Positions 30,020 to 39,389 of a stretch of 64,000 bases of DNA are shown here, piece after piece (positions within the stretch are counted from its first letter, which is position 1; the number at the start of each line of letters is the position of its first letter). Under the pieces are notes generated by a model that was not told the DNA's origin, searched no databases, and saw only the letters and a program-made list of their open reading frames with translations. Source of the DNA: Methylobacillus sp. GTDB taxonomy: Bacteria; Pseudomonadota; Gammaproteobacteria; Burkholderiales; Methylophilaceae. The translations under genes and the position numbers were made by a program. The stretch lies in NCBI RefSeq assembly GCF_036844465.1, contig NZ_DAIUFW010000009.1:4839-68838 (forward strand). Direction: 5' to 3'.

Positions 30020-31174
30020 ATGAGCCAACCTCGAGACACTTTTGCAGACATCGGAAGCGTGACCTATCGGATTCGACAGGCGGCAGCGATGCTTGGCGTC
30101 ACAGATGTCACGCTCCGGGGTTACTCGGAGAACTTCGACATTCGGAGAGCTTCCGATACGAACCCTGGGGCACCCCCCATCCGGATCTATGAGCCCTCGC
30201 AGATTTTCGAGATTGCGCTCTGGCGACGGATGCAGGGTTATCTCAAGGTTCCTCAGACTCATGGAAAGCCGTTCGTCATTGCTGTGACCGTGTGCAAAGG
30301 CGGGACAGGCAAAACAGTCACCTCTGTTGAGCTGGCCGTTGAGCTTCAACTACTGGGCTTTCGGACGCTGCTGATCGACCTTGACTCTCAGGCCTCCGCA
30401 ACACAAATCATGGGTTACGAACCTGACATCATGATGGAGGAAGCCGAAAGTTTCGGCTTGAGTGAGAAGGCAGTGGTCCGCGAAACGCTCGCGAATGTCC
30501 TTGAGGCATACGTGAGCTCGCAGCAAGGCGGCCGCGTTAGGCAGATGCCCTATGACCTGAAAAGTCTCATCAAAAAGCCCTTTGGGGAACACGGGCCTCA
30601 TCTCGTCCCCGCCGACACATTCCTGAGCAGCATCGAACGGACTCTTCTTGTCGCGACAGGAAACCGTGAGCGGTTCTTGCGCAACATGCTCGATGAAGCT
30701 GCAAAGGGTGCGATCCCCGGTTTTGACACCAGCATCTATGACGCAATCATTCTCGACTGCCCACCTACCGTTTCGACTACCACATCCTCGGGAATGGTCG
30801 CCGCTGACCTGCTGATTGCGCCGATACGGATGGATGTTTTTTCGATCAAGGGCATCAGCAAGATGATTTCCGAGATTCATGTGTTTAAGGATGAATGGAG
30901 CTTGAAGCCTGAACTCATCATTCTCCCGACGCACTACTCTACAAATGTCGGTCGGATCAGCCGCATGCGGCGTGAGCTCGAGACTTACAGCGACAGCGTT
31001 TCGCCCTACGTGATCTCTGTAAGTGAAGACCTGCCAAACTCTCAAGAGCGCAGCATGCCGCTCTCTATCACGAAACCGACATCAACATCGGCTTGCGAGT
31101 ACAGGGCGTTCGCGGCTTACATCCGCGAAAAGATTGTCGACAGGCTCTCGAAAACCAAAGGGGATAGGAAATGA
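30020..31174 (+). CDS. parA: ParA partition ATPase (type Ia, with N-terminal HTH)
   Basis: N-terminal HTH YRIRQAAAMLGVTDVTLRGY and deviant Walker A KGGTGKT. Confidence 0.85.
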   Translation: MSQPRDTFADIGSVTYRIRQAAAMLGVTDVTLRGYSENFDIRRASDTNPGAPPIRIYEPSQIFEIALWRRMQGYLKVPQTHGKPFVIAVTVCKGGTGKTVTSVELAVELQLLGFRTLLIDLDSQASATQIMGYEPDIMMEEAESFGLSEKAVVRETLANVLEAYVSSQQGGRVRQMPYDLKSLIKKPFGEHGPHLVPADTFLSSIERTLLVATGNRERFLRNMLDEAAKGAIPGFDTSIYDAIILDCPPTVSTTTSSGMVAADLLIAPIRMDVFSIKGISKMISEIHVFKDEWSLKPELIILPTHYSTNVGRISRMRRELETYSDSVSPYVISVSEDLPNSQERSMPLSITKPTSTSACEYRAFAAYIREKIVDRLSKTKGDRK

Positions 31175-32052
31175 AAACGCGGCAACGCGATCCAGTCGGC
31201 CTGGTGCTTCGCACTATGCCCGCCGATAGCGAGTTCGGAAGGCCCGCGGAAGGACTCCCTGCCGTAACCGCAAAGGTCAGCCTGGACCTCCTGGAAGAAG
31301 TGCCCGGCCGACGCAGGAAGCTCACCGACGAGCAGTACCAGCAACTCGTGGAGAACCTGGCGAACAATCCTCTTGCGACGCCGGTAACTGTCCGCGCAAT
31401 CGATAACGGCCGTTTCGAGATCATCGCCGGCCACAACCGTGTGGCCGCATACCGAGAGCTCGAGCGCACAGAGATCGACGTTCACGTCGTCGATCTCGAT
31501 GATGACGGCGTCGAGCGGGCAGCCTTCTACTCGAACCTGCTATCGAACGAACTCCCTGACTACCACAGATATCTTGGGTTCAAGGGACGGATGGCATCGA
31601 CAGGCAAGAATCAAACGGAGATTGCTGAAGAGGCCGGGATCAACAAAAGTATTGTTTCTCGCCTCATGGCGTTCGCATCACTACCGTCTTTGGCATTGAA
31701 TGTCATTGAGAGGAACCCAGAGAAATTCGGCGTCAACGCGATTTCGGAGCTGTCGAAGCTCGTTGAAAGCCATCCCCCTGAGGCGATCGCACAAGCCCTT
31801 GAAAAAGTCGCCTCTGAAGAGATCACGATGAAACATGCGATCTCTCTGATCAAGGCTTCAGGGAAGATCAAAGAAAATAAGAAAGCAGACCCAGAGATCA
31901 TCACGATTCGAAGAGGCAATACAACATTCTGCTCTGTTCGGAGGGCCGGATCTTCGCTTCGACTGGACTTCGCTAATGGATCAGTCACGGAGGCGCTGAT
32001 GGCCGAGATCGAAGATCTGATCAAAAGACACGCAAAAGCCACTGGTGACTGA
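31171..32052 (+). CDS. parB: ParB-like partition / DNA-binding protein
   Basis: ParB N-terminal domain (EIIAGHNRVAAYREL) and HTH (QTEIAEEAGINKSIVSR). Overlaps the parA stop. Confidence 0.75.
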   Translation: MKTRQRDPVGLVLRTMPADSEFGRPAEGLPAVTAKVSLDLLEEVPGRRRKLTDEQYQQLVENLANNPLATPVTVRAIDNGRFEIIAGHNRVAAYRELERTEIDVHVVDLDDDGVERAAFYSNLLSNELPDYHRYLGFKGRMASTGKNQTEIAEEAGINKSIVSRLMAFASLPSLALNVIERNPEKFGVNAISELSKLVESHPPEAIAQALEKVASEEITMKHAISLIKASGKIKENKKADPEIITIRRGNTTFCSVRRAGSSLRLDFANGSVTEALMAEIEDLIKRHAKATGD

Positions 32053-32271: not shown

Positions 32272-32384
32272 AAAGAAAAACCCGGTCTCGGGGCCAACCG
32301 AGCCGGGCTTTCTTGAAAAGGGTGATGCTTTTCTGGTGTCTGATACCAAACCGGGGCCAACCGGTCAGACCTCACCGCCAACTG
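32272..32384 (-). ncRNA. Predicted counter-transcript (antisense RNA) to the leader/start region of rep-like gene 1
   Basis: Minus-strand promoter TTGACG-16-TACCAT (32418-32391). Two hairpins with UUGGCC loops. Intrinsic terminator at 32307-32272, with a tttttctttt tail. Confidence 0.35.
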
Positions 32385-33805
32385 AGGTGAATGGTATCAA
32401 ACAGCCGGGAAACGTCAAGGGATTCTATTGCCTTGAAAAAGGCGAACCCGGACTTTTTCACGTGACTACTCCAATTCGCCTCAATGCGGGCCGAGGGGAC
32501 TGCGACGGACCACGTCCGCGCTTTCTCCCTGCCCCCCTGATCAACGCACGAGCCGCGGTGATGAACCGCCTGTACTGCCAGGACCTGTCGCAGACCGCGC
32601 GCCAGGTGCTTTACGGTGTGCTGGCCTTTTTTAAGCTTGGCCATCCTGAGCAACCTGTTTTTGCCTTTCGTGACACGCTTCAAGCTGAAACCCTGCTCAG
32701 TAGTCGCTCCAAACTTTTTCGTGGCCTTCAGGAAGCCGAAGACAAGGGCTACATCCGTCGTGAGCAAGTCCGCAACTGGGGCCGTCGATCCTATGGGCAG
32801 TTCAGTCGAAGTCACATCTACGTCCTCGACAAGACATTGTTGATGCTCGGGCTGGCAGGCTCTCGGATACTCTCGACCTCGCCCGCATCAACGCAGGCCT
32901 CCTCGATTGAGGACGAACAGCACACAGAAGTTGGAGTACCCCCATCCTCCTCCGCTGAGTTCGACGCCCTCCCCTCCTCTGTCGATTCACTCTCCAGTGC
33001 CGCCGGACTGCTCGAGATCGATGCTTCGCTTGAAACCTGCGAGGCACAGCACCAGGCAGAGATCCTCGAGGCGTGGGAAGACGGTCGCGCCGACTGGGAG
33101 GATGACGAAACAGGCTGGGAAGCAGACACGCCCCCCCGGGAGCCAACGACCGTCACCCCGTACGCCACTTATCCACAGGAGCCGTGTCTCACAGTGACAC
33201 ACGGTATACAAGAGAGTGAACCTACCCTTGATCTACAGCTAAAAGGACAACTTCCCACGCGCGAATCCCTACCCGACCCGTCGTCGCTGAAGGATTCTTC
33301 TGAAAACATCGATCCCCACACCCGTCTGCCCCACGACGTGACGCCACTCATGAAGCTTGGTGTCTCCAAGACGCTGATCTGCACCCTGATGGCCCACGCC
33401 AAGCGCCAAGGTCAGCAAGGTGCGCTTGGCGCAGCAGTGAAGCTCTTCTGGCAGCACATCCATGGGCTAAGAGGCAGATCGGTCTTTGCCTATCTGCGCA
33501 AAGTCCTCAGCCAGAAACGCGACTACGCCTACCTGCTCAAGCAGCAGTACGCGAACGAAATCGATGGCGTACTCACTGCCTCAGCCACTGCGCGGCTGTC
33601 GGAGAAGCTGGCGGTCTTGCTTGCACGCGGGGACGGCTTCCAGGTTCGCAACGCCGAAGGTCAATCAATTGGGACGCTGCGCGCAAACGGTGAAACTGGA
33701 TACGTGGAGGGGTTTGATCCCAAGCGCGGCCGCGTTGCGCTGCCGGCTAACCTGCGCTTTATGCAGGCAGTGGAAGAAGGTCGCTTGCATCTGCGCCCGT
33801 GCTGA
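32336..33805 (+). CDS. Rep-like winged-helix protein, paralog 1 (putative replication initiator)
   Basis: Homologous along its full length to the 34217-35521 ORF. GTG start with no good SD; an alternative GTG lies at 32462. Positioned directly after parAB. Confidence 0.45.
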   Translation: MSDTKPGPTGQTSPPTEVNGIKQPGNVKGFYCLEKGEPGLFHVTTPIRLNAGRGDCDGPRPRFLPAPLINARAAVMNRLYCQDLSQTARQVLYGVLAFFKLGHPEQPVFAFRDTLQAETLLSSRSKLFRGLQEAEDKGYIRREQVRNWGRRSYGQFSRSHIYVLDKTLLMLGLAGSRILSTSPASTQASSIEDEQHTEVGVPPSSSAEFDALPSSVDSLSSAAGLLEIDASLETCEAQHQAEILEAWEDGRADWEDDETGWEADTPPREPTTVTPYATYPQEPCLTVTHGIQESEPTLDLQLKGQLPTRESLPDPSSLKDSSENIDPHTRLPHDVTPLMKLGVSKTLICTLMAHAKRQGQQGALGAAVKLFWQHIHGLRGRSVFAYLRKVLSQKRDYAYLLKQQYANEIDGVLTASATARLSEKLAVLLARGDGFQVRNAEGQSIGTLRANGETGYVEGFDPKRGRVALPANLRFMQAVEEGRLHLRPC

Positions 33806-33819
33806 TCCAACTCGAACTA

Positions 33820-34137
33820 TCAGGCGATGGCTTGAATTCCATTTTTCTTGACGACTGTGAGCAGCCGCAGCGCCGGTCCACCCGGCTTCTTGACGCCACG
33901 CTCCCAGTCCGAAATCAAATTCTTACTGACATTCAGGTAGCGGGCAAAAACCGGCTGAGACAGGTGCTCACGCTCGCGCAACGCACGAATCTCATCGGGC
34001 GACAAAGCCTCAACGGACGTGAGGCACGCTTCGTCAAACTCGCGCATGGTGCGCTTGTCGACTGCGCCAATCTCGGAGAGCGCTTCCATTGTCTCGTGGA
34101 TAGCGCCGAGTGCTTCACTGCGGTAGTTCTTCGTCAT
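33820..34137 (-). CDS. XRE-family HTH protein of the MqsA/HigA/YiaG antitoxin-like type (no toxin partner)
   Basis: LSQPVFARYLNVSKNLISDWERGVKKPGGPALRLL. SD ggaga upstream. Confidence 0.65.
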   Translation of the reverse strand: MTKNYRSEALGAIHETMEALSEIGAVDKRTMREFDEACLTSVEALSPDEIRALREREHLSQPVFARYLNVSKNLISDWERGVKKPGGPALRLLTVVKKNGIQAIA

Positions 34138-34216: not shown

Positions 34217-35521
34217 TTAAGCCGCTACGATCCGACGTAAGTGCCCGGCTGCAAGTGCTTCGAGAAACTCTGCGTTCATCCGGCCGTATCGCACCACGTC
34301 TCCCGGCCTATGAACACGCAGAAGTCCGTTTGCTTCGACTTGAATCATCGTCCCTCCTTCGCCCCTGAAAAGCTGCCCCTCGAGCTCGTCGCACTTGATC
34401 TCAACGTGTCGCGCAGCTTCAGACTGCGCCCGCTTGATCGCTTCAGTTTGGGCCTTATTCGACGCGACCCGTGCGAAGTCAGTTGGCTTGTTGATCATGG
34501 CACGAAGGTATTTGAAGACAGATCTGCCTTGCAGTTTCAGCGCATCGATTCGAGACTTCGCAAGCTTCCAGATCGACCCAAGGGCTCCAGTCTTGTCGGC
34601 CTCTCTGGCAAGTCGCATGAGATAAGCAATGGTCGGCTTGTTCAAGCCATAGTCAAACAAGGCGGTCAGCTCGACTGGTAAACGGCTTGACGGGTCTATC
34701 TGGTTTTGAAGTTTTTCAGAAAAGTCCCCTGATGACCTGCCGGTTGATCTTGCACTGGCGGTTCTGGGTTGTTCTCTTATGAGTTGAGGTTTAGTGGGAC
34801 GTTCACTCTCATGTATACCGAGGGTCAAATTGACCGACGGCGCCTGTGGATAAAATTTTTCGAGGGAATGTGCGTCGCTGTCGTCGCGCACTTCCGTGGC
34901 AAAACGCGATTCTGGGGCGGCTAGCGCCTCGAATGGTTCGTCGGGATAGGGTGGGCTGTCTAAATGCTTTTCGTCGTCTCCTGCGCCTTCTTCTGCGTCC
35001 AGAATCAGATCGGTGACGGGGACTGCTGCTTGGATGGCCTCCCATGCCTCGATAGCATCAAGCTGGTCTTGCGAGGGGTCGATCTGTGGGGCAGGGCAGA
35101 TGAGGTCAAGTTCAAGCAGGCAACGATTCGTCAGCCATGTTTTGGAATAAGCGAACTGTCCATGGCGAGCTGCGTCGCGTCGTCGCCATTGCTCTCTGAC
35201 CAGGTAGCCGCGATCGGAGAGTTCTCGAATGCCGCGACTTAGCGTTTCAACGCTGCCCAGATGGCACTCCTTGCGTAGGACTTCTCTTTCAGGCCACAAA
35301 GGCTGATCGAGCTTCCTGATATTCAGGAAAGTGAGGAGCCCCGACAGCGTGCGCCGGGCAAGGGTGCTCAGGTCTAGAAATTTGAGCGAATCGAAGACGC
35401 GCGCTTTAGCGTCGACGAGGAGCTTGGGAAGCCGCCGTGGCTGTGAAGACAGCGGGGCAGCAGAGTATGAGGAGGCCACAAAAGACGGTCCAAGAGTTCG
35501 ACTTTTCCCTTTTTCTGGCAA
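34217..35521 (-). CDS. Rep-like winged-helix protein, paralog 2
   Basis: TTG start. Shares blocks with paralog 1: PRRLPKLLVDAKARV, GYLVREQ, LGIHESERPT, IDPSSRLP, GALGS, GRSVFKYLR. Confidence 0.45.
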   Translation of the reverse strand: MPEKGKSRTLGPSFVASSYSAAPLSSQPRRLPKLLVDAKARVFDSLKFLDLSTLARRTLSGLLTFLNIRKLDQPLWPEREVLRKECHLGSVETLSRGIRELSDRGYLVREQWRRRDAARHGQFAYSKTWLTNRCLLELDLICPAPQIDPSQDQLDAIEAWEAIQAAVPVTDLILDAEEGAGDDEKHLDSPPYPDEPFEALAAPESRFATEVRDDSDAHSLEKFYPQAPSVNLTLGIHESERPTKPQLIREQPRTASARSTGRSSGDFSEKLQNQIDPSSRLPVELTALFDYGLNKPTIAYLMRLAREADKTGALGSIWKLAKSRIDALKLQGRSVFKYLRAMINKPTDFARVASNKAQTEAIKRAQSEAARHVEIKCDELEGQLFRGEGGTMIQVEANGLLRVHRPGDVVRYGRMNAEFLEALAAGHLRRIVAA

Positions 35522-35572: not shown

Positions 35573-35708
35573 ATCGTTGTGGGATTGGATTTATCGGCGC
35601 CAACCGATTTTTCTTAGCAAGTACAGATCACGTATCACACGTAATCGCAAGTTGTACACATAAGCCCTGGGCTCGAGTTCGTACCTCGATCCCAGGGCTT
35701 TGTGTTTT
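35573..35708 (+). ncRNA. Predicted small RNA antisense to the upstream leader of rep-like gene 2
   Basis: Lies downstream of the promoter above. Hairpin 35593-35608 has loop CGCCAA. A strong terminator (35662-35700, 16-bp stem with 1 mismatch) is followed by tgtgtttt. Confidence 0.35.
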
Positions 35709-35868
35709 CAATGTCTGATTTTCTTCGCTAGATGGTTTCTCGCAGAAATTCTAATCGGTCTGATTTTCTGTATTCTTTTGGCCTAAGAAGGCGCGTTACC
35801 GATTCTATCAGTTAGCTTATGTCGACGGAATCCTTTTACAAAGCAATCTTCTTTGAAGGAAATTGAAT

Positions 35869-36312
35869 CTATTTTGCGTCGATAACGACTTTGGTTTGCA
35901 CCTTTTCGCGAAGTAGGGACCGGTCAGCATTTTTGTGATGTGCATAGCCATTCAGGATCGCACCATCGTGTATCACAATCGTGCCGTAGCTCACTTCCCC
36001 AGTGACGTTGGCAGTCCCGTACAGGTGAACTTCCCGAGCGCGAATGTCACCTTGAACTGTTCCGGCCACAAATACGCGCTCAGCGAGGATTGAACCAAAG
36101 ACCTCTGATTCTGCGTGCAACAGAACGACGCCTGATCCGTCCGCGATCGTGACGTCGCCCAGCACGCGGCCGTGAATCTTGATTCCCGCCTGGAGGTCCA
36201 TAGCTCCCTTGACGGTCACACCCTTCGCGATCAGAGAAGTGATGCCAAGACCTTGGGCTGTCTCATGAGAAGTTTGCTTACGGTCTTTCCCTTTGCCTGG
36301 AAGTTTGAACAT
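35869..36312 (-). CDS. Bactofilin
   Basis: Repetitive beta-helix pattern (VTVKGAMDL.AGIKIHGRVLGDVTI..., VFGSILAERVFVAGTVQGDIRAREVHLYGTANVTGEVSYGTIVIHDGAILNG). ATG 36312 has SD gagg; an alternative GTG at 36324 overlaps the upstream stop. Confidence 0.8.
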   Translation of the reverse strand: MFKLPGKGKDRKQTSHETAQGLGITSLIAKGVTVKGAMDLQAGIKIHGRVLGDVTIADGSGVVLLHAESEVFGSILAERVFVAGTVQGDIRAREVHLYGTANVTGEVSYGTIVIHDGAILNGYAHHKNADRSLLREKVQTKVVIDAK

Positions 36313-36320
36313 GGGGCGCC

Positions 36321-37121
36321 TCACTCGAGTACGTAGATTCGTTGGTCGGTGATGACCAAGCCTTCTTCTGGGCTGATTCGTAGGACCTTTCCGTCGAGAC
36401 CTGCTGCAGTCTGCCCAGCTCGTACGGACTTGCCACTCGAGTCCATAATCTCGCTTTCTCCCTTGAATTGAATGCCAGCAGCCTGTTTGCTGATGACGCG
36501 CATCGGCAGCGAGGTCTCGTCGATTGTTGAGGTCTGCGTTGGTGTAGGGGCGATGGGCGGCACGACCGTTTGAGCCGGGCGCGGGGGAGGAGGAGCGATT
36601 GTGGCTACGGACGGTTGAGGAGCTGCTTGTCTGGCAGGCATCGCTACTTGCGGTTTTTTTTCAACAGGTTTCTGAGGTGTTGTTTTCGTCGCGGCTTCGG
36701 AGCGTGGAGACTCCTCAATCGCACTCATTGCGTTCCCGATCAGCGGCAGCAGAGCGGCAAGCGCGGTTTCAAGTTGCTTCGTGCGTGCCTCGAGGCTTGA
36801 GACGCGATCCTGGTTGGCTTCGAACAGGGCCTTGTATGTTTCTTCCCGGTCATCAATTGAGGCGTGTAGCGCATCAAATGCATCCTGACGAACCACATCA
36901 ACAAGGGGTTGCGAGGACTGATGGACAGCACTCTGCTCTGCTGGCCGAGTCGTGGCGACGGCTGCAAACCATGCAGCGGTAGCCACAGCTACCATGGAGA
37001 TGACCAACGATGCAATCGTGATCAGCCTCAGTCGCCCGGGTGATACGAGCTCGGCATCGATAACGCGATCACTGTCCTCAGAGCCTACCCCTAGCGAACG
37101 CTCAATTTCGTCGTACCTCAT
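36321..37121 (-). CDS. Bitopic membrane protein with coiled coil, Pro-rich linker and C-terminal beta-rich domain
   Basis: TM segment LITIASLVISMVAVATAAWFAAV and Pro-rich stretch PPPPRPAQTVVPPIAPTP. ATGA overlap with the upstream gene. Confidence 0.6.
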   Translation of the reverse strand: MRYDEIERSLGVGSEDSDRVIDAELVSPGRLRLITIASLVISMVAVATAAWFAAVATTRPAEQSAVHQSSQPLVDVVRQDAFDALHASIDDREETYKALFEANQDRVSSLEARTKQLETALAALLPLIGNAMSAIEESPRSEAATKTTPQKPVEKKPQVAMPARQAAPQPSVATIAPPPPRPAQTVVPPIAPTPTQTSTIDETSLPMRVISKQAAGIQFKGESEIMDSSGKSVRAGQTAAGLDGKVLRISPEEGLVITDQRIYVLE

Positions 37122-38098
37122 CAGTCCTGCTCCTTACGTTCCGGTGTGTTATTTGCTGTCCTAAGCGACCCGATCAAGGCCTCAATGCTTGATAGCGCTG
37201 TAATTTTTCCATTGGCTTCCGCAAGCTGTTCTCTCAGTCCGGCGCTCTCCTTGCGGCAATCTCGCAGTTCTTCCCGTGCTTTTTTCTCATTTATTTGAGC
37301 GCCTTCAAGCGCTTGTTTAAGCGAGCTTTCTTTCCTGACGAACTCCTGTCGAAGGTCGTCTGTTTGCTTCAAAAGATGCTTTCGGTCGCCGTCTGCTCGG
37401 TCATCGGCAAGCTTCATCTGCCGCTCGGCTTCCGCCCTTAGCTCGGCAACCAAGGCTTGGTGACGCTCAGTCAGGGAGGCGAGCGCGACCTCGTGACGTT
37501 CCGTCGCTGATGCGAGCAAGCGATCACCACGCTCGCGTTCAGCCTGGACGCTGCCCTCAAGTTCGCCAATCCGTCTCTGGTAATGGGCGATCTCGGCGTG
37601 CAGGTTCTCGTTGCGCTCCGTGAGGTGCTGGACCTCTTCTGTGAGCGCCTGGATGCGCTCTGTGCGCTCAGCACACATACGCTCGAGGCCGGCAAGCTCC
37701 TTCTGCAGCAGTAGAGCCTTCTGTACGAAGTCATCTGCGGTCGCCCGTAGGGCCTTGTTTTCTTCCTCGAGCGCGTCTTCCTTACGCTCCAGGTCAGCCC
37801 GAGCTGCCTCGAGATTCTTGGTGGCTCCGTCCAGGGCCAGATCCCATGATGTACGCGCGAACTCATTGAGCAGATCGACCAAGGGGTCAGGCACTCCTGG
37901 CATGCGTGAGAGCGTGAGCTTTTCGTGCAGGTTTGCCGCTTCTGTCTTGACCTCGGCAATGAGCTTCCTGACCACATCTGCGCCGCCTCTGCGGCCGATT
38001 TTGGTGTAGATCGCCTCGAATGTTGGATTTCCTCCTTCGGCGAGAACTTCGAAGAAGGCGTTCCGAACGTCCTCGAAGGAAACTGCGGTGGCTCTCAT
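37121..38098 (-). CDS. KfrA-like DNA-binding coiled-coil protein
   Basis: KfrA_N-like N-terminus (VSFEDVRNAFFEVLAEGGNPTFEAIYTKIGRRGGADVVRKLIAEVK) followed by about 250 aa of heptad-rich coiled coil. Confidence 0.65.
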   Translation of the reverse strand: MRATAVSFEDVRNAFFEVLAEGGNPTFEAIYTKIGRRGGADVVRKLIAEVKTEAANLHEKLTLSRMPGVPDPLVDLLNEFARTSWDLALDGATKNLEAARADLERKEDALEEENKALRATADDFVQKALLLQKELAGLERMCAERTERIQALTEEVQHLTERNENLHAEIAHYQRRIGELEGSVQAERERGDRLLASATERHEVALASLTERHQALVAELRAEAERQMKLADDRADGDRKHLLKQTDDLRQEFVRKESSLKQALEGAQINEKKAREELRDCRKESAGLREQLAEANGKITALSSIEALIGSLRTANNTPERKEQD

Positions 38099-38538
38099 CG
38101 AGTGGCCCCTTTCGAGCGAATGGCGAGGTGCCCTGAGACAAGGCAGGCCATCGAGGTGAGGAGTACTACCGCACAGAAGGGCAGGTTGGTACGCGGGGCG
38201 ATCTCGGGCGCGTAGTGCGGCATCAGGATCAGGGCCAAAGCGCCGATGGCGATCACTCCTGTAAGGATGTGGCTCAGGCCTACCGCCCAGCGCTTCCTCT
38301 GTTGCAGGCCGTAGCCCGCAAAGGCGCTTAGGACGGTGGTCCCGAGGAACGCAGCAGAGAGGCTACCGCTCAGGAGCGGGGCGTAACCGCGCACGGCCAT
38401 CGCCGCCAGCATCGTGCTCAAGAAGACGAATACGGTGGCTGCCACGAAGTGCCATGTCACGGTGAGGCCGCTATAGGTGTTTGCTGTCTGTTCAGAGGTC
38501 ATGGCTTGGGTCCTTGTCCTTGAGTTTTTGGAGTTCAC
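38095..38538 (-). CDS. Polytopic membrane protein
   Basis: 147 aa with about 4 TM segments. Overlaps its neighbours. Confidence 0.55.
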   Translation of the reverse strand: MNSKNSRTRTQAMTSEQTANTYSGLTVTWHFVAATVFVFLSTMLAAMAVRGYAPLLSGSLSAAFLGTTVLSAFAGYGLQQRKRWAVGLSHILTGVIAIGALALILMPHYAPEIAPRTNLPFCAVVLLTSMACLVSGHLAIRSKGATR

Positions 38539-38968
38539 GTATTTGCTGCGGCAGCCGGGTGAGGGCCAATGCCGTCAGCAGCGGAGAGACTGATGCGCCG
38601 AGCGCTGACGAGATCGTTTCGATCGTCGTGGCAGGGAGGAGCGTGAGCAGGAGCAGCCATGAAGCGCCATCGCTCAACGCGGAGCTGCCTGCCAGGTAGC
38701 GACACAGGTACTCGCATAGGCGAACGCACGCCACCAGGAACAAAGCTGCGAGCAGGACTGTGGCCACCAGCTGCATCACCGTCAGGGGCCAGGATCGAAG
38801 GGCTGAGCCAAGTGCGAGCGTCAGCACGTTGAGCGTGAACAGGTGGATGAACAGGCCTCGGTGAGCGGTCGGTGGACGCCTCGAGACCGCACGGCCAGCC
38901 AAAAGCAGGGCGCCGTGATGCAGGAAGGCTCGCACTAGCCTGAGCCAAGCGGAAAAAGCGCTGCGCAC
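38492..38968 (-). CDS. Polytopic membrane protein, first gene of the operon
   Basis: 158 aa with about 4 TM segments. Preferred over the Arg/Pro-rich alternative frame 38535-39074. Confidence 0.45.
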   Translation of the reverse strand: MRSAFSAWLRLVRAFLHHGALLLAGRAVSRRPPTAHRGLFIHLFTLNVLTLALGSALRSWPLTVMQLVATVLLAALFLVACVRLCEYLCRYLAGSSALSDGASWLLLLTLLPATTIETISSALGASVSPLLTALALTRLPQQIRELQKLKDKDPSHDL

Positions 38969-39179
38969 GTCCCGTTGTCCTCAGATTTGTGTGGATAAGT
39001 GTGTGGGAAAGGGCCGGCAGCCCTTGTCGCCCCTTGGGTTCGTCGGTTGCTGCATTTTGCGTCAGTGCGCTCACTGGATTCTCGATCTGATTGTAGTGCT
39101 AAGGACTCTGATTGTATCGGATTTTTCCAAACGTTTTTCGGACGTCAAACGTCCAAAACTTATTAGTTATGGTCAGTTG

Positions 39180-39206
39180 GTTCCCATAACCCCCCATTAT
39201 GGGAAC
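39180..39206. repeat. Perfect 10-bp inverted repeat with 7-bp spacer (candidate tyrosine-recombinase core site)
   Basis: GTTCCCATAA-cccccca-TTATGGGAAC. A G8 tract follows at 39214-39221. Confidence 0.5.
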
Positions 39207-39341: not shown

Positions 39342-39389
39342 TTTCAAGATTCAGTGACACAGATGGCCGTAAGTTCAGAATTCAGTGAC
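39342..39389 (+). repeat. Two 17-nt direct repeats, start-to-start spacing 31 bp, upstream of the HTH-recombinase operon
   Basis: tTTCAaGATTCAGTGAC (39342-39358) and gTTCAgAATTCAGTGAC (39373-39389). Confidence 0.55.

Follow-up and report, generated by a model that had tools for sequence, protein, structure and literature searches.

A plasmid-borne operon uniting a bactofilin with a KfrA-type protein: a candidate membrane-anchored scaffold for plasmid maintenance

Introduction

Bactofilins are known as scaffold proteins with chromosomal genes, serving cell-wall enzymes and flagella and, in Myxococcus, also the ParABS system of the chromosome, and the characterised cytoskeletal systems of plasmids are ParM, TubZ, ParA and, more tentatively, KfrA filaments. 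Here we describe an operon of five genes, g1 to g5, in which a bactofilin gene and a gene for a KfrA-type protein stand together. It lies in a 64-kb stretch of contig NZ_DAIUFW010000009.1, which in its full length is called the window and to whose coordinates all positions refer. From its gene context, we propose that the operon encodes a membrane-anchored bactofilin scaffold that is tied to plasmid DNA via KfrA and assists ParABS-based maintenance or positioning, a reading to which we would give a probability of roughly 45%.

The described systems closest to this locus each share some of its components. KfrA proteins form DNA-dependent filaments and autoregulate via inverted repeats at their own promoter, and their gene is found beside incC-korB (PMC7821693). 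In plasmid RA3, KfrC links KfrA to membrane proteins, to KorB and to proteins of the type IV secretion system (T4SS) (PMC8124265). The bactofilins of the BacNOP-PadC system organise the chromosomal ParABS of Myxococcus xanthus (PMC5703909). Elsewhere, bitopic client proteins bind bactofilins via their N-terminal tails (PMC12448750, PMC10945521, PMC9507126), and a membrane-targeting consensus, MFSKKKK, has been described for bactofilins (PMC12448750). A full-text literature search found no paper on a plasmid-borne bactofilin or on a link between KfrA and bactofilins.

Results

Five tightly packed genes

Five open reading frames (ORFs) lie tightly packed on the minus strand at 35869-38968, in the order g1-g2-g3-g4-g5. 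The first two, g1 (38492-38968; 158 amino acids, aa) and g2 (38095-38502; 135 aa), encode a small polytopic membrane protein and a further polytopic membrane protein, neither of a known family. They are followed by g3 (37121-38098; 325 aa), encoding a KfrA-type protein with a KfrA_N head and a coiled-coil tail, g4 (36321-37121; 266 aa), encoding a bitopic membrane protein with a C-terminal beta domain, and g5 (35869-36312; 147 aa), encoding a bactofilin. Alternative starts exist for g2 at 38538 (147 aa) and for g5 at GTG 36324 (151 aa).

With g2 starting at ATG 38502, g1 and g2 overlap by 11 nucleotides (nt); g2 and g3 overlap in an ATGA at 38098-38095, and g3 and g4 meet in a TGATG whose A at 37121 is common to both. 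The g4/g5 junction is tight with either start of g5, being a GTGA at 36324-36321 or, with ATG 36312, a gap of 8 nt. Every chosen start is preceded by a Shine-Dalgarno-like motif, and all junctions are overlaps or gaps of at most 8 nt. We prefer the ATG starts of g2 and g5 because Shine-Dalgarno-like motifs precede ATG 36312 (GAGTGAGG-N6-ATG) and ATG 38502 and none precedes the alternative GTG starts, because the same ATG codons are used in the RefSeq annotation of the related Aromatoleum aromaticum EbN1 plasmid 1 and in gene calls on Logan contigs, and, for g5, because the resulting N-terminus resembles the membrane-targeting consensus. The original prediction, made on this locus from its letters, had described all five ORFs as overlapping or abutting with ATGA and GTGA junctions. 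The packing, the ATGA between g2 and g3 and the contact at 37121 stand as described, but g5 probably starts at ATG 36312, which replaces the GTGA overlap with the 8-nt gap.

Conservation of the module

Relatives of the module were taken from public assemblies and metagenomes. Clade A (L006, L007, L025, L026 and L028) shares 82-95% amino-acid identity per gene with the operon and clade B (L009 and L027) 51-66%; clade C consists of fragments (L010 and L017), and a further fragment, L019, carries a g3 homologue at 62% identity. The five genes occur in the same order and with equally tight junctions on every contig long enough to hold them (L026 ends inside g4), the g3/g4 junction of clade B being an 11-nt overlap. 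Pairwise ratios of non-synonymous to synonymous substitution rates (dN/dS) range from 0.08 to 0.31 over all five genes (g1 0.20-0.22, g2 0.25-0.31, g3 0.11-0.14, g5 0.08), so that purifying selection acts on all five as protein-coding genes; in the comparison with clade B, synonymous sites are close to saturation (dS >1.2). That order, junctions and frames are kept at 51-66% identity, together with these ratios, upholds the earlier proposal of a single unit, and comparative sequence analysis indicates a conserved, tight packing beyond chance.

The combination of the five genes appears to be rare and confined to one plasmid lineage. Relatives of g4 form five clusters among 5.8 billion proteins and five among 1.84 billion representatives; the large-database search gave four close clusters for g3 and three for g5, and all clusters of these three proteins fall within this module. 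A profile search over the 1.84 billion representatives contributed just two more proteins, P0010 and the distant P0012. Iterative searches with g1 and g2 found no relatives outside the plasmid lineage, their homologues occurring solely in this module, and a scan of GTDB genomes with a bactofilin alignment returned only two distant Pseudolabrys loci, without the module.

Predicted architecture of the proteins

The GenBank annotations of these genes, now years old, read ‘hypothetical’, ‘DNA-binding protein’ and ‘polymer-forming cytoskeletal protein’. The g1 and g2 proteins have 2-4 hydrophobic segments each, with 3-4 predicted transmembrane segments in g2. Neither matches a Pfam or NCBIfam family, and they show no mutual similarity, i.e. 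they are not paralogues.

The head of g3 (residues 8-123) matches KfrA_N (PF11740) with an E-value of 2.8e-19 and 70.3 bits against a cut-off of 26.1, over positions 2-108 of the 113-position profile. The tail of g3, about 200 aa in length, gives sub-threshold matches to models of the crescentin rod and of SMC coiled coils; residues 91-310 contain no proline at all and consist to 68% of E, K, R, Q, L and A. Judged from this composition together with the sub-threshold matches, the tail is a predicted long coiled coil. Identity to the nearest other plasmid KfrA-type proteins is about 25%, and by domain, architecture and location we assign g3 to the KfrA-type family.

For g4, AlphaFold2 and hydropathy give a conserved acidic N-terminal tail (residues 1-31), a transmembrane helix (33-51), a long helix predicted as a coiled coil (74-136), a disordered proline-rich linker (138-199) and an all-beta C-terminal domain (about 205-266). 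A model of the beta domain by itself reaches a pLDDT (predicted local distance difference test) of 88 and a pTM (predicted template modelling score) of 0.72. Conservation within g4 is highest in this domain and in the N-terminal tail. Three lysines or arginines lie on the N side of the transmembrane helix and one on the C side, which by the positive-inside rule predicts an N-in/C-out insertion with the C-terminal domain in the periplasm. No match was found for g4 in Pfam, NCBIfam or the PDB, the C-terminal beta domain included. Foldseek comparison of the full-length and domain-only models with the PDB gave no match with E <1, the best hits (E 1.9-10) being L24/NusG KOW or DnaJ fragments, and profiles of g3 and g4 matched only coiled coils or noise among PDB sequences.

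The identity of g5 as a bactofilin is indicated by its match to PF04519 (E 7e-20, 71.5 bits against a cut-off of 27.9), which covers profile positions 1-96 of 98 and residues 30-127 in GTG-start numbering, and by similarity to Caulobacter crescentus BacA (2n3d; E 2e-9, residues 24-123 in ATG-start numbering). Read from the ATG, the protein begins with MFKLPGKGK, i.e. with M1, F2 and lysines at positions 3, 7 and 9, and its orthologues begin with MLRMLGKGQ and MLNLLRKKE; the resemblance of MFKLPGKGK to MFSKKKK is by inspection only. No ParB_N domain was found by Pfam in any of the five proteins. Pfam, AlphaFold2 and hydropathy thus agree with the composition read initially from the sequence, namely two polytopic proteins, a KfrA_N-like protein with a coiled coil, a bitopic protein and a bactofilin.

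A g4-like/bactofilin cassette on other plasmids

A tblastn search with g5 retrieved 17 PLSDB records representing 11 contexts, 10 of which we inspected; on this evidence bactofilin genes on plasmids are rare, though not unique. The original prediction had known of no described bactofilin module on a plasmid or an integrative and conjugative element (ICE). For the literature searched this stands, but the genes themselves are already present in these records.

Searches by tblastn with g4 and with the Azonexus cassette proteins described below recovered only their own records in PLSDB. Most informative was a hidden Markov model of the g4 C-terminal domain, with the consensus ...G.x.L.x.I.P....(I/V)(I/V)TD.R(I/V)... 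On four other plasmids a domain of this type forms the extreme C-terminus of a membrane-anchored protein encoded directly upstream of a bactofilin. Pairwise E-values are 2e-8 for Methylovorus pMsip01, 2e-7 for Cupriavidus pMTS3 and 2e-6 for an Azonexus hydrophilus plasmid, and the match on Comamonadaceae pOS401 (E 0.013) is marginal. The last two genes of the operon thus constitute a recurrent cassette, found also on unrelated plasmids of beta-proteobacteria.

In the Azonexus plasmid (NZ_CP151407.1; L015, 3486-7523) the bactofilin gene lies within a ParA...ParB partition operon. The order is a MipZ/ParA-like ATPase, a 138-aa protein, a 352-aa bitopic g4-like protein and a 274-aa bactofilin, whose gene abuts one with a ParB_N domain; a Rep3 initiator is encoded 2 kb downstream. 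This partition operon recalls BacP-PadC and appears to be uncharacterised. The order on pMsip01 (L002) is ParA, ParB, a HerA/FtsK-like ATPase, the g4-like protein, the bactofilin and then a KorA/TrfB-type regulator, and on pMTS3 the g4-like protein, the bactofilin, a HerA-like ATPase, HU and a topoisomerase. On pMsip01 (L002, 5309-6004), an in-frame stretch upstream of the annotated 201-aa g4-like gene, AFNFLVIGCGIMISVGAAAFFYG, forms a transmembrane or signal-anchor segment, and this gene has probably been annotated with too late a start. The positive-inside rule predicts N-in for the g4 analogues as well.

The Azonexus plasmid, pMTS3 and pOS401 are classed as non-mobilizable, and no mating-pair formation type is given for them. 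The presence of the cassette on such plasmids argues against a T4SS-specific role and weakens the specific tie to the transfer machinery that had been suggested for the operon.

Other plasmid bactofilins were seen in further settings. Plasmid pOS401 (L013, 4914-7303) carries two bactofilin genes, with a 143-aa gene (one predicted transmembrane segment) between them, preceded by the gene of a 298-aa bitopic protein that holds the marginal g4-domain match. A second plasmid lineage, comprising Burkholderia pBcp895-1 (L003), a Cupriavidus pauculus plasmid (L016) and Paraburkholderia pBC201 (L030), has a common backbone with DUF4400, an ATP-dependent helicase and a DNA-repair exonuclease. The C. 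pauculus plasmid and pBC201 encode a bitopic protein of 209-292 aa upstream of the bactofilin; in the former a weakly AcaB-like protein precedes it, and pBcp895-1 has an annotated AcaB about 1 kb upstream of its bactofilin. No g4-type domain was detected in this lineage. On E. coli IncF plasmids (L005, 5371-6931; six records) the bactofilin has two N-terminal transmembrane helices and lies between two small proteins whose N-termini resemble those of lipoproteins, after which comes an EAL-domain gene. The distant relative P0012 (332 aa) has two g4-type domains in tandem (...VVTDRRVIVL... and ...IVTDRRVIYL...), which shows that this C-terminal domain is an independent module.

The megaplasmid and the surroundings of the operon

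The window is collinear with Aromatoleum aromaticum EbN1 plasmid 1 (NC_006823.1, circular, 207 kb; our L001), with an identity of 99.4% over the five-gene operon and of 97-99.4% over 24.5-51.4 kb. This level of identity, together with segments missing in comparison to EbN1, indicates that the window is a piece of a sister plasmid and not of EbN1 plasmid 1 itself. The RefSeq annotation of EbN1 plasmid 1 lists, around the operon, an F-type transfer set (TraC, TraB, TraK, TraV, TraN, TraU, TraW, TraH and TraG), topoisomerase III, ParA, ParB, a tyrosine recombinase, a sigma-70-family sigma factor, a LuxR regulator and a PRTRC system. Given the F-type transfer genes and the collinearity with a circular plasmid record, we take the element to be an F-type conjugative megaplasmid; the same collinearity rules out that it is an ICE, which had been left as an option.

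ParA (30020-31174) and ParB (31171-32052) are encoded about 4-7 kb from the operon. Between them and g5 lie two convergent paralogous genes, X489 (32336-33805, plus strand) and X434 (34217-35521, minus strand), whose products are similar to each other at an E-value of about 1e-37 and match nothing in Pfam, NCBIfam, PHROGs or PADLOC. In PLSDB, their homologues occur solely on the two Aromatoleum plasmids and are annotated as hypothetical. The module keeps a constant position, with TopoIII-ParA-ParB-X489 on its bactofilin side and, on the g1 side, a divergent pair of a 180-aa helix-turn-helix (HTH) gene and a tyrosine recombinase gene. Distant relatives have the X489 type only, and in clades B and C it stands alone between bactofilin and ParB (L017, L027); X434 is an extra paralogue of the window lineage, placed between X489 and the bactofilin. 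The location between a rep/par region and a recombinase, as first described, is therefore right with respect to ParA/ParB and the tyrosine recombinase. A Rep identity for X434 or X489 could not be confirmed, with no family match and plasmid homologues that are hypothetical.

A hairpin with a 16-bp stem (35662-35700), about 170 nt past the g5 stop and without a T-tract on the minus strand, is a possible end of the operon. In EbN1 plasmid 1 the insertion point of ISAzo40 falls between g5 and this hairpin. This 1.69-kb element (IS1380 family), about 55 bp past the bactofilin stop in EbN1, is absent from the window at about 35810-35814, and at 33806-33971 the window lacks a 1.17-kb segment that in EbN1 plasmid 1 holds a DUF1778/GNAT toxin-antitoxin pair and yggL. 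Rfam detected no RNA family in the whole window.

Candidate regulatory sites upstream of g1

The 440-bp divergent intergenic region upstream of g1 contains blocks conserved between clades A and B. A consensus scan identified a sigma-70-like promoter candidate, TTGACG-16-AAAAAT, at 39121-39148 on the minus strand, and both hexamers are kept in clade A and B relatives despite the near-saturated synonymous sites of the coding regions. Over the -35 hexamer lies an inverted repeat, TTTCGGACGT-N3-ACGTCCAAAA (39136-39158), a candidate operator that is kept in L027 and whose core, GGACGT-N3-ACGTCC, occurs only this once in the window. A second candidate operator, the inverted repeat GTTCCCATAA-N7-TTATGGGAAC (39180-39206), is likewise found a single time, against 0.03 occurrences expected by chance. 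In L027, of clade B, both of its arms have changed in step (GTGCCCATAA...TTATGGGCAC), leaving the palindrome intact. The uniqueness of the palindromes in the window fits local regulation, and we discarded the idea of a global regulon operator on the same ground. Since KfrA autoregulates via inverted repeats at its own promoter (PMC7821693), we infer that g3 may bind these palindromes and thereby possibly regulate its own operon.

Just past the promoter candidate, two direct copies of TACAATCAGA, 21 nt apart (39086-39116, minus strand), are largely kept in L027. A perfect DnaA-box consensus, TTATCCACA, lies on the minus strand at 38990-38998, 21 nt upstream of the g1 start, and this 9-mer is kept in all aligned relatives, clade B included. 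The window holds three perfect copies, all between 33.1 and 39.0 kb, for which an origin of vegetative replication (oriV) and DnaA-dependent regulation are both possibilities. One perfect 9-mer is located in X489 and one in X434, in the same orientation relative to the gene. At the far side of the intergenic region, two direct copies of GTCACTGAATyyTGAA, 31 nt apart (39343-39389, minus strand), adjoin the start of the divergent operon of the 180-aa HTH gene and the tyrosine recombinase gene. This motif has three matches in the window against 0.15 expected, the 39343-39389 copies are kept in clade B, and it is a candidate operator or recombinase-related site.

Discussion

The scaffold proposed here would be the product of a single operon, co-transcribed and translationally coupled, on a conjugative megaplasmid of low copy number. 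The bactofilin g5 would form nucleotide-independent polymers along the cytoplasmic side of the membrane, to which its N-terminal peptide MFKLPGKGK would attach it. The conserved cytoplasmic tail of g4, inserted N-in/C-out, would couple to the bactofilin polymer in the manner of the tails of PbpC, LmdC and Csd5, and its periplasmic coiled coil, proline-rich spacer and beta domain would fix the bactofilin patch to an envelope structure. On the DNA side, the N-terminal head of g3 would bind the plasmid, probably at the promoter palindromes, where it would also autoregulate, and its coiled coil of about 200 aa would link the plasmid or the ParB segrosome to the scaffold; g1 and g2 may serve as lineage-specific membrane anchors or assembly factors. 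The contacts among the proteins and with DNA, the membrane topology and the phenotype are all what we infer in this model. Indirect support for a membrane-anchored positioning scaffold comes from the occurrence of the cassette inside or next to par operons of unrelated plasmids.

Several observations weigh against this model. The plasmid already has its resident ParA and ParB, and the operon encodes no PadC-like adaptor. The C-terminal tail of g5 is about 25 aa long and without a motif of the KKKVVVKK type known from BacP. The g4-like protein of pMsip01 seemingly has almost no cytoplasmic tail, its transmembrane segment lying at the very start of the ORF, which is at odds with the binding of bactofilins via such tails as a rule. 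Most characterised pairs of a bactofilin and a bitopic client act on the cell wall and not on DNA (PMC12448750, PMC10945521, PMC9507126). Finally, the adjacency of KfrA and bactofilin genes is found in a single backbone lineage, so that the synteny could partly reflect shared ancestry and not functional coupling. The co-occurrence of bactofilin and KfrA_N genes on plasmids, to which the original prediction had pointed as a check, is kept within this lineage but does not extend to the KfrA-type relatives inspected on three other plasmids (EbN1 plasmid 2 and plasmids of Azonexus and Marinobacter adhaerens), none of which has an adjoining bactofilin.

A more general proposal concerns the last two genes. 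The g4-like protein and the bactofilin may constitute an undescribed, plasmid-specific cytoskeletal cassette with an unassigned (I/V)TDxR(I/V) periplasmic beta domain. Large plasmids of beta-proteobacteria would combine it with varied partners that handle DNA, namely KfrA in this operon, ParA/ParB in Azonexus and the HerA/FtsK-like ATPases of pMsip01 and pMTS3, and it would anchor the plasmid at a fixed envelope site. We offer this generalisation only tentatively, with the odds against it; if true, it would define an accessory class of systems for plasmid partition or positioning that are built on bactofilins.

The same proteins could instead form an envelope-remodelling module, in which g5, g4 and g1/g2 act on the cell wall or envelope and g3 is a mere autoregulator, as KfrA proteins are known to be; such a module might prepare or mark out the places where the F-type T4SS or pilus is built, or it might change the shape or division of the host cell. 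The predicted layout of g4, from an N-terminal tail and a transmembrane segment to a periplasmic coiled coil and a domain at the C-terminus, is that of the bitopic envelope proteins PbpC, LmdC and Csd5. A further partner of bactofilins, Csd7, is a transmembrane protein, the C-terminal domain of g4 is predicted to be periplasmic, and the plasmid has a full F-type transfer gene set. However, that domain resembles neither M23, SH3 or PBP domains nor any PDB fold, three of the cassette plasmids are typed as non-mobilizable, and the neighbours of the cassette are ParA/ParB, HerA-like ATPases, HU and topoisomerase, not cell-wall enzymes, all of which makes this explanation unlikely in our view.

We also doubt that the operon merely places two independent units behind one promoter, i.e. 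a kfrA stability or regulatory gene, possibly with g1 and g2, and a g4-g5 cassette to which it has no physical link. Such a composite would account for g4-like/bactofilin cassettes without KfrA on other plasmids, for KfrA-type genes without a bactofilin elsewhere and for the restriction of the combination to one lineage. It sits less well with the nucleotide shared by g3 and g4 here and their overlap in clade B, with an order and tight spacing kept despite near-saturated synonymous sites, and with the independent ties of both units to partition loci. That the small membrane proteins and the polymer form a membrane-disrupting or entry-exclusion system serving defence, exclusion or addiction is very improbable, for although the operon encodes three membrane proteins of no known family among its five products and the region has other maintenance genes, with the EbN1 toxin-antitoxin pair nearby, PADLOC returned only coiled-coil noise and PHROGs no match, toxin-like or nuclease domains were not found, and a composition of KfrA and bactofilin is without precedent in known defence systems.

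What appears unusual about the operon is its composition of KfrA and bactofilin, and the par-linked recurring cassette widens its reach. A plasmid bactofilin scaffold wired to KfrA and to the envelope would, if real, be a new kind of filament in plasmid biology and would provide a concrete partner for KfrA, whose role in segregation is not yet clear. It may also help to explain how low-copy plasmids of 200-300 kb stay in place. On a practical matter, the cassette is small and conserved and is amenable to tests in a tractable host, as genetics exist for Aromatoleum/Azoarcus.

Compared to the BacNOP-PadC-ParABS system, the present locus is alike in that a bactofilin is genetically linked to ParABS and proposed to position DNA, and the Azonexus plasmid cassette comes closer still with its ParB_N gene directly after the bactofilin. 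The Myxococcus system, in contrast, is encoded on the chromosome, acts in the cytoplasm and comprises three bactofilins and an adaptor that resembles ParB, whereas the operon has one bactofilin with a short tail, lacks a PadC-like gene and combines a KfrA-type DNA binder with three membrane proteins. In view of the missing PadC and the missing long bactofilin tail, we do not consider the module a BacNOP-PadC system.

The pairs of a bactofilin and its clients, BacA-PbpC of Caulobacter, BacA-LmdC of Hyphomonas and Rhodospirillum and CcmA-Csd5/Csd7 of Helicobacter, are matched here by a g4 gene that adjoins the bactofilin gene. The predicted build of g4, with tail, transmembrane segment, periplasmic coiled coil and C-terminal globular domain, is that of LmdC and Csd5, and g1 and g2 would correspond to additional transmembrane partners such as Csd7. 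Unlike these clients, to which it has no sequence similarity, g4 ends in a domain that belongs to none of the M23, SH3 and PBP types and is unmatched in the PDB and in Pfam, and it is encoded in a context of plasmid maintenance and not among cell-wall genes. As modelled, g4 thus resembles a client of the Csd5/LmdC type by architecture only; lacking the C-terminal domain that defines the type, it is not placed there.

The Kfr operons of the IncP-1 plasmids RK2 and R751 and of the IncU plasmid RA3 differ from this one in that the KfrA-type protein is accompanied by a beta-helical bactofilin, by a bitopic protein whose C-terminal domain matches no known family and by two small polytopic membrane proteins, as opposed to the alpha-helical products of kfrB and kfrC, and in that the kfrA-type gene is third in the operon and not first. 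No Kfr-named family in Pfam or NCBIfam matches g1, g2, g4 or g5, a comparison with families, as the KfrB and KfrC sequences were not compared directly. In common with these operons, g3 combines a KfrA_N head with a long coiled-coil tail and is plasmid-borne near a ParA/ParB locus of the IncC/KorB type, and palindromes lie at the promoter of its operon as KfrA operators do. The role of KfrC, in turn, is the one that we propose here for g4, g5, g1 and g2.

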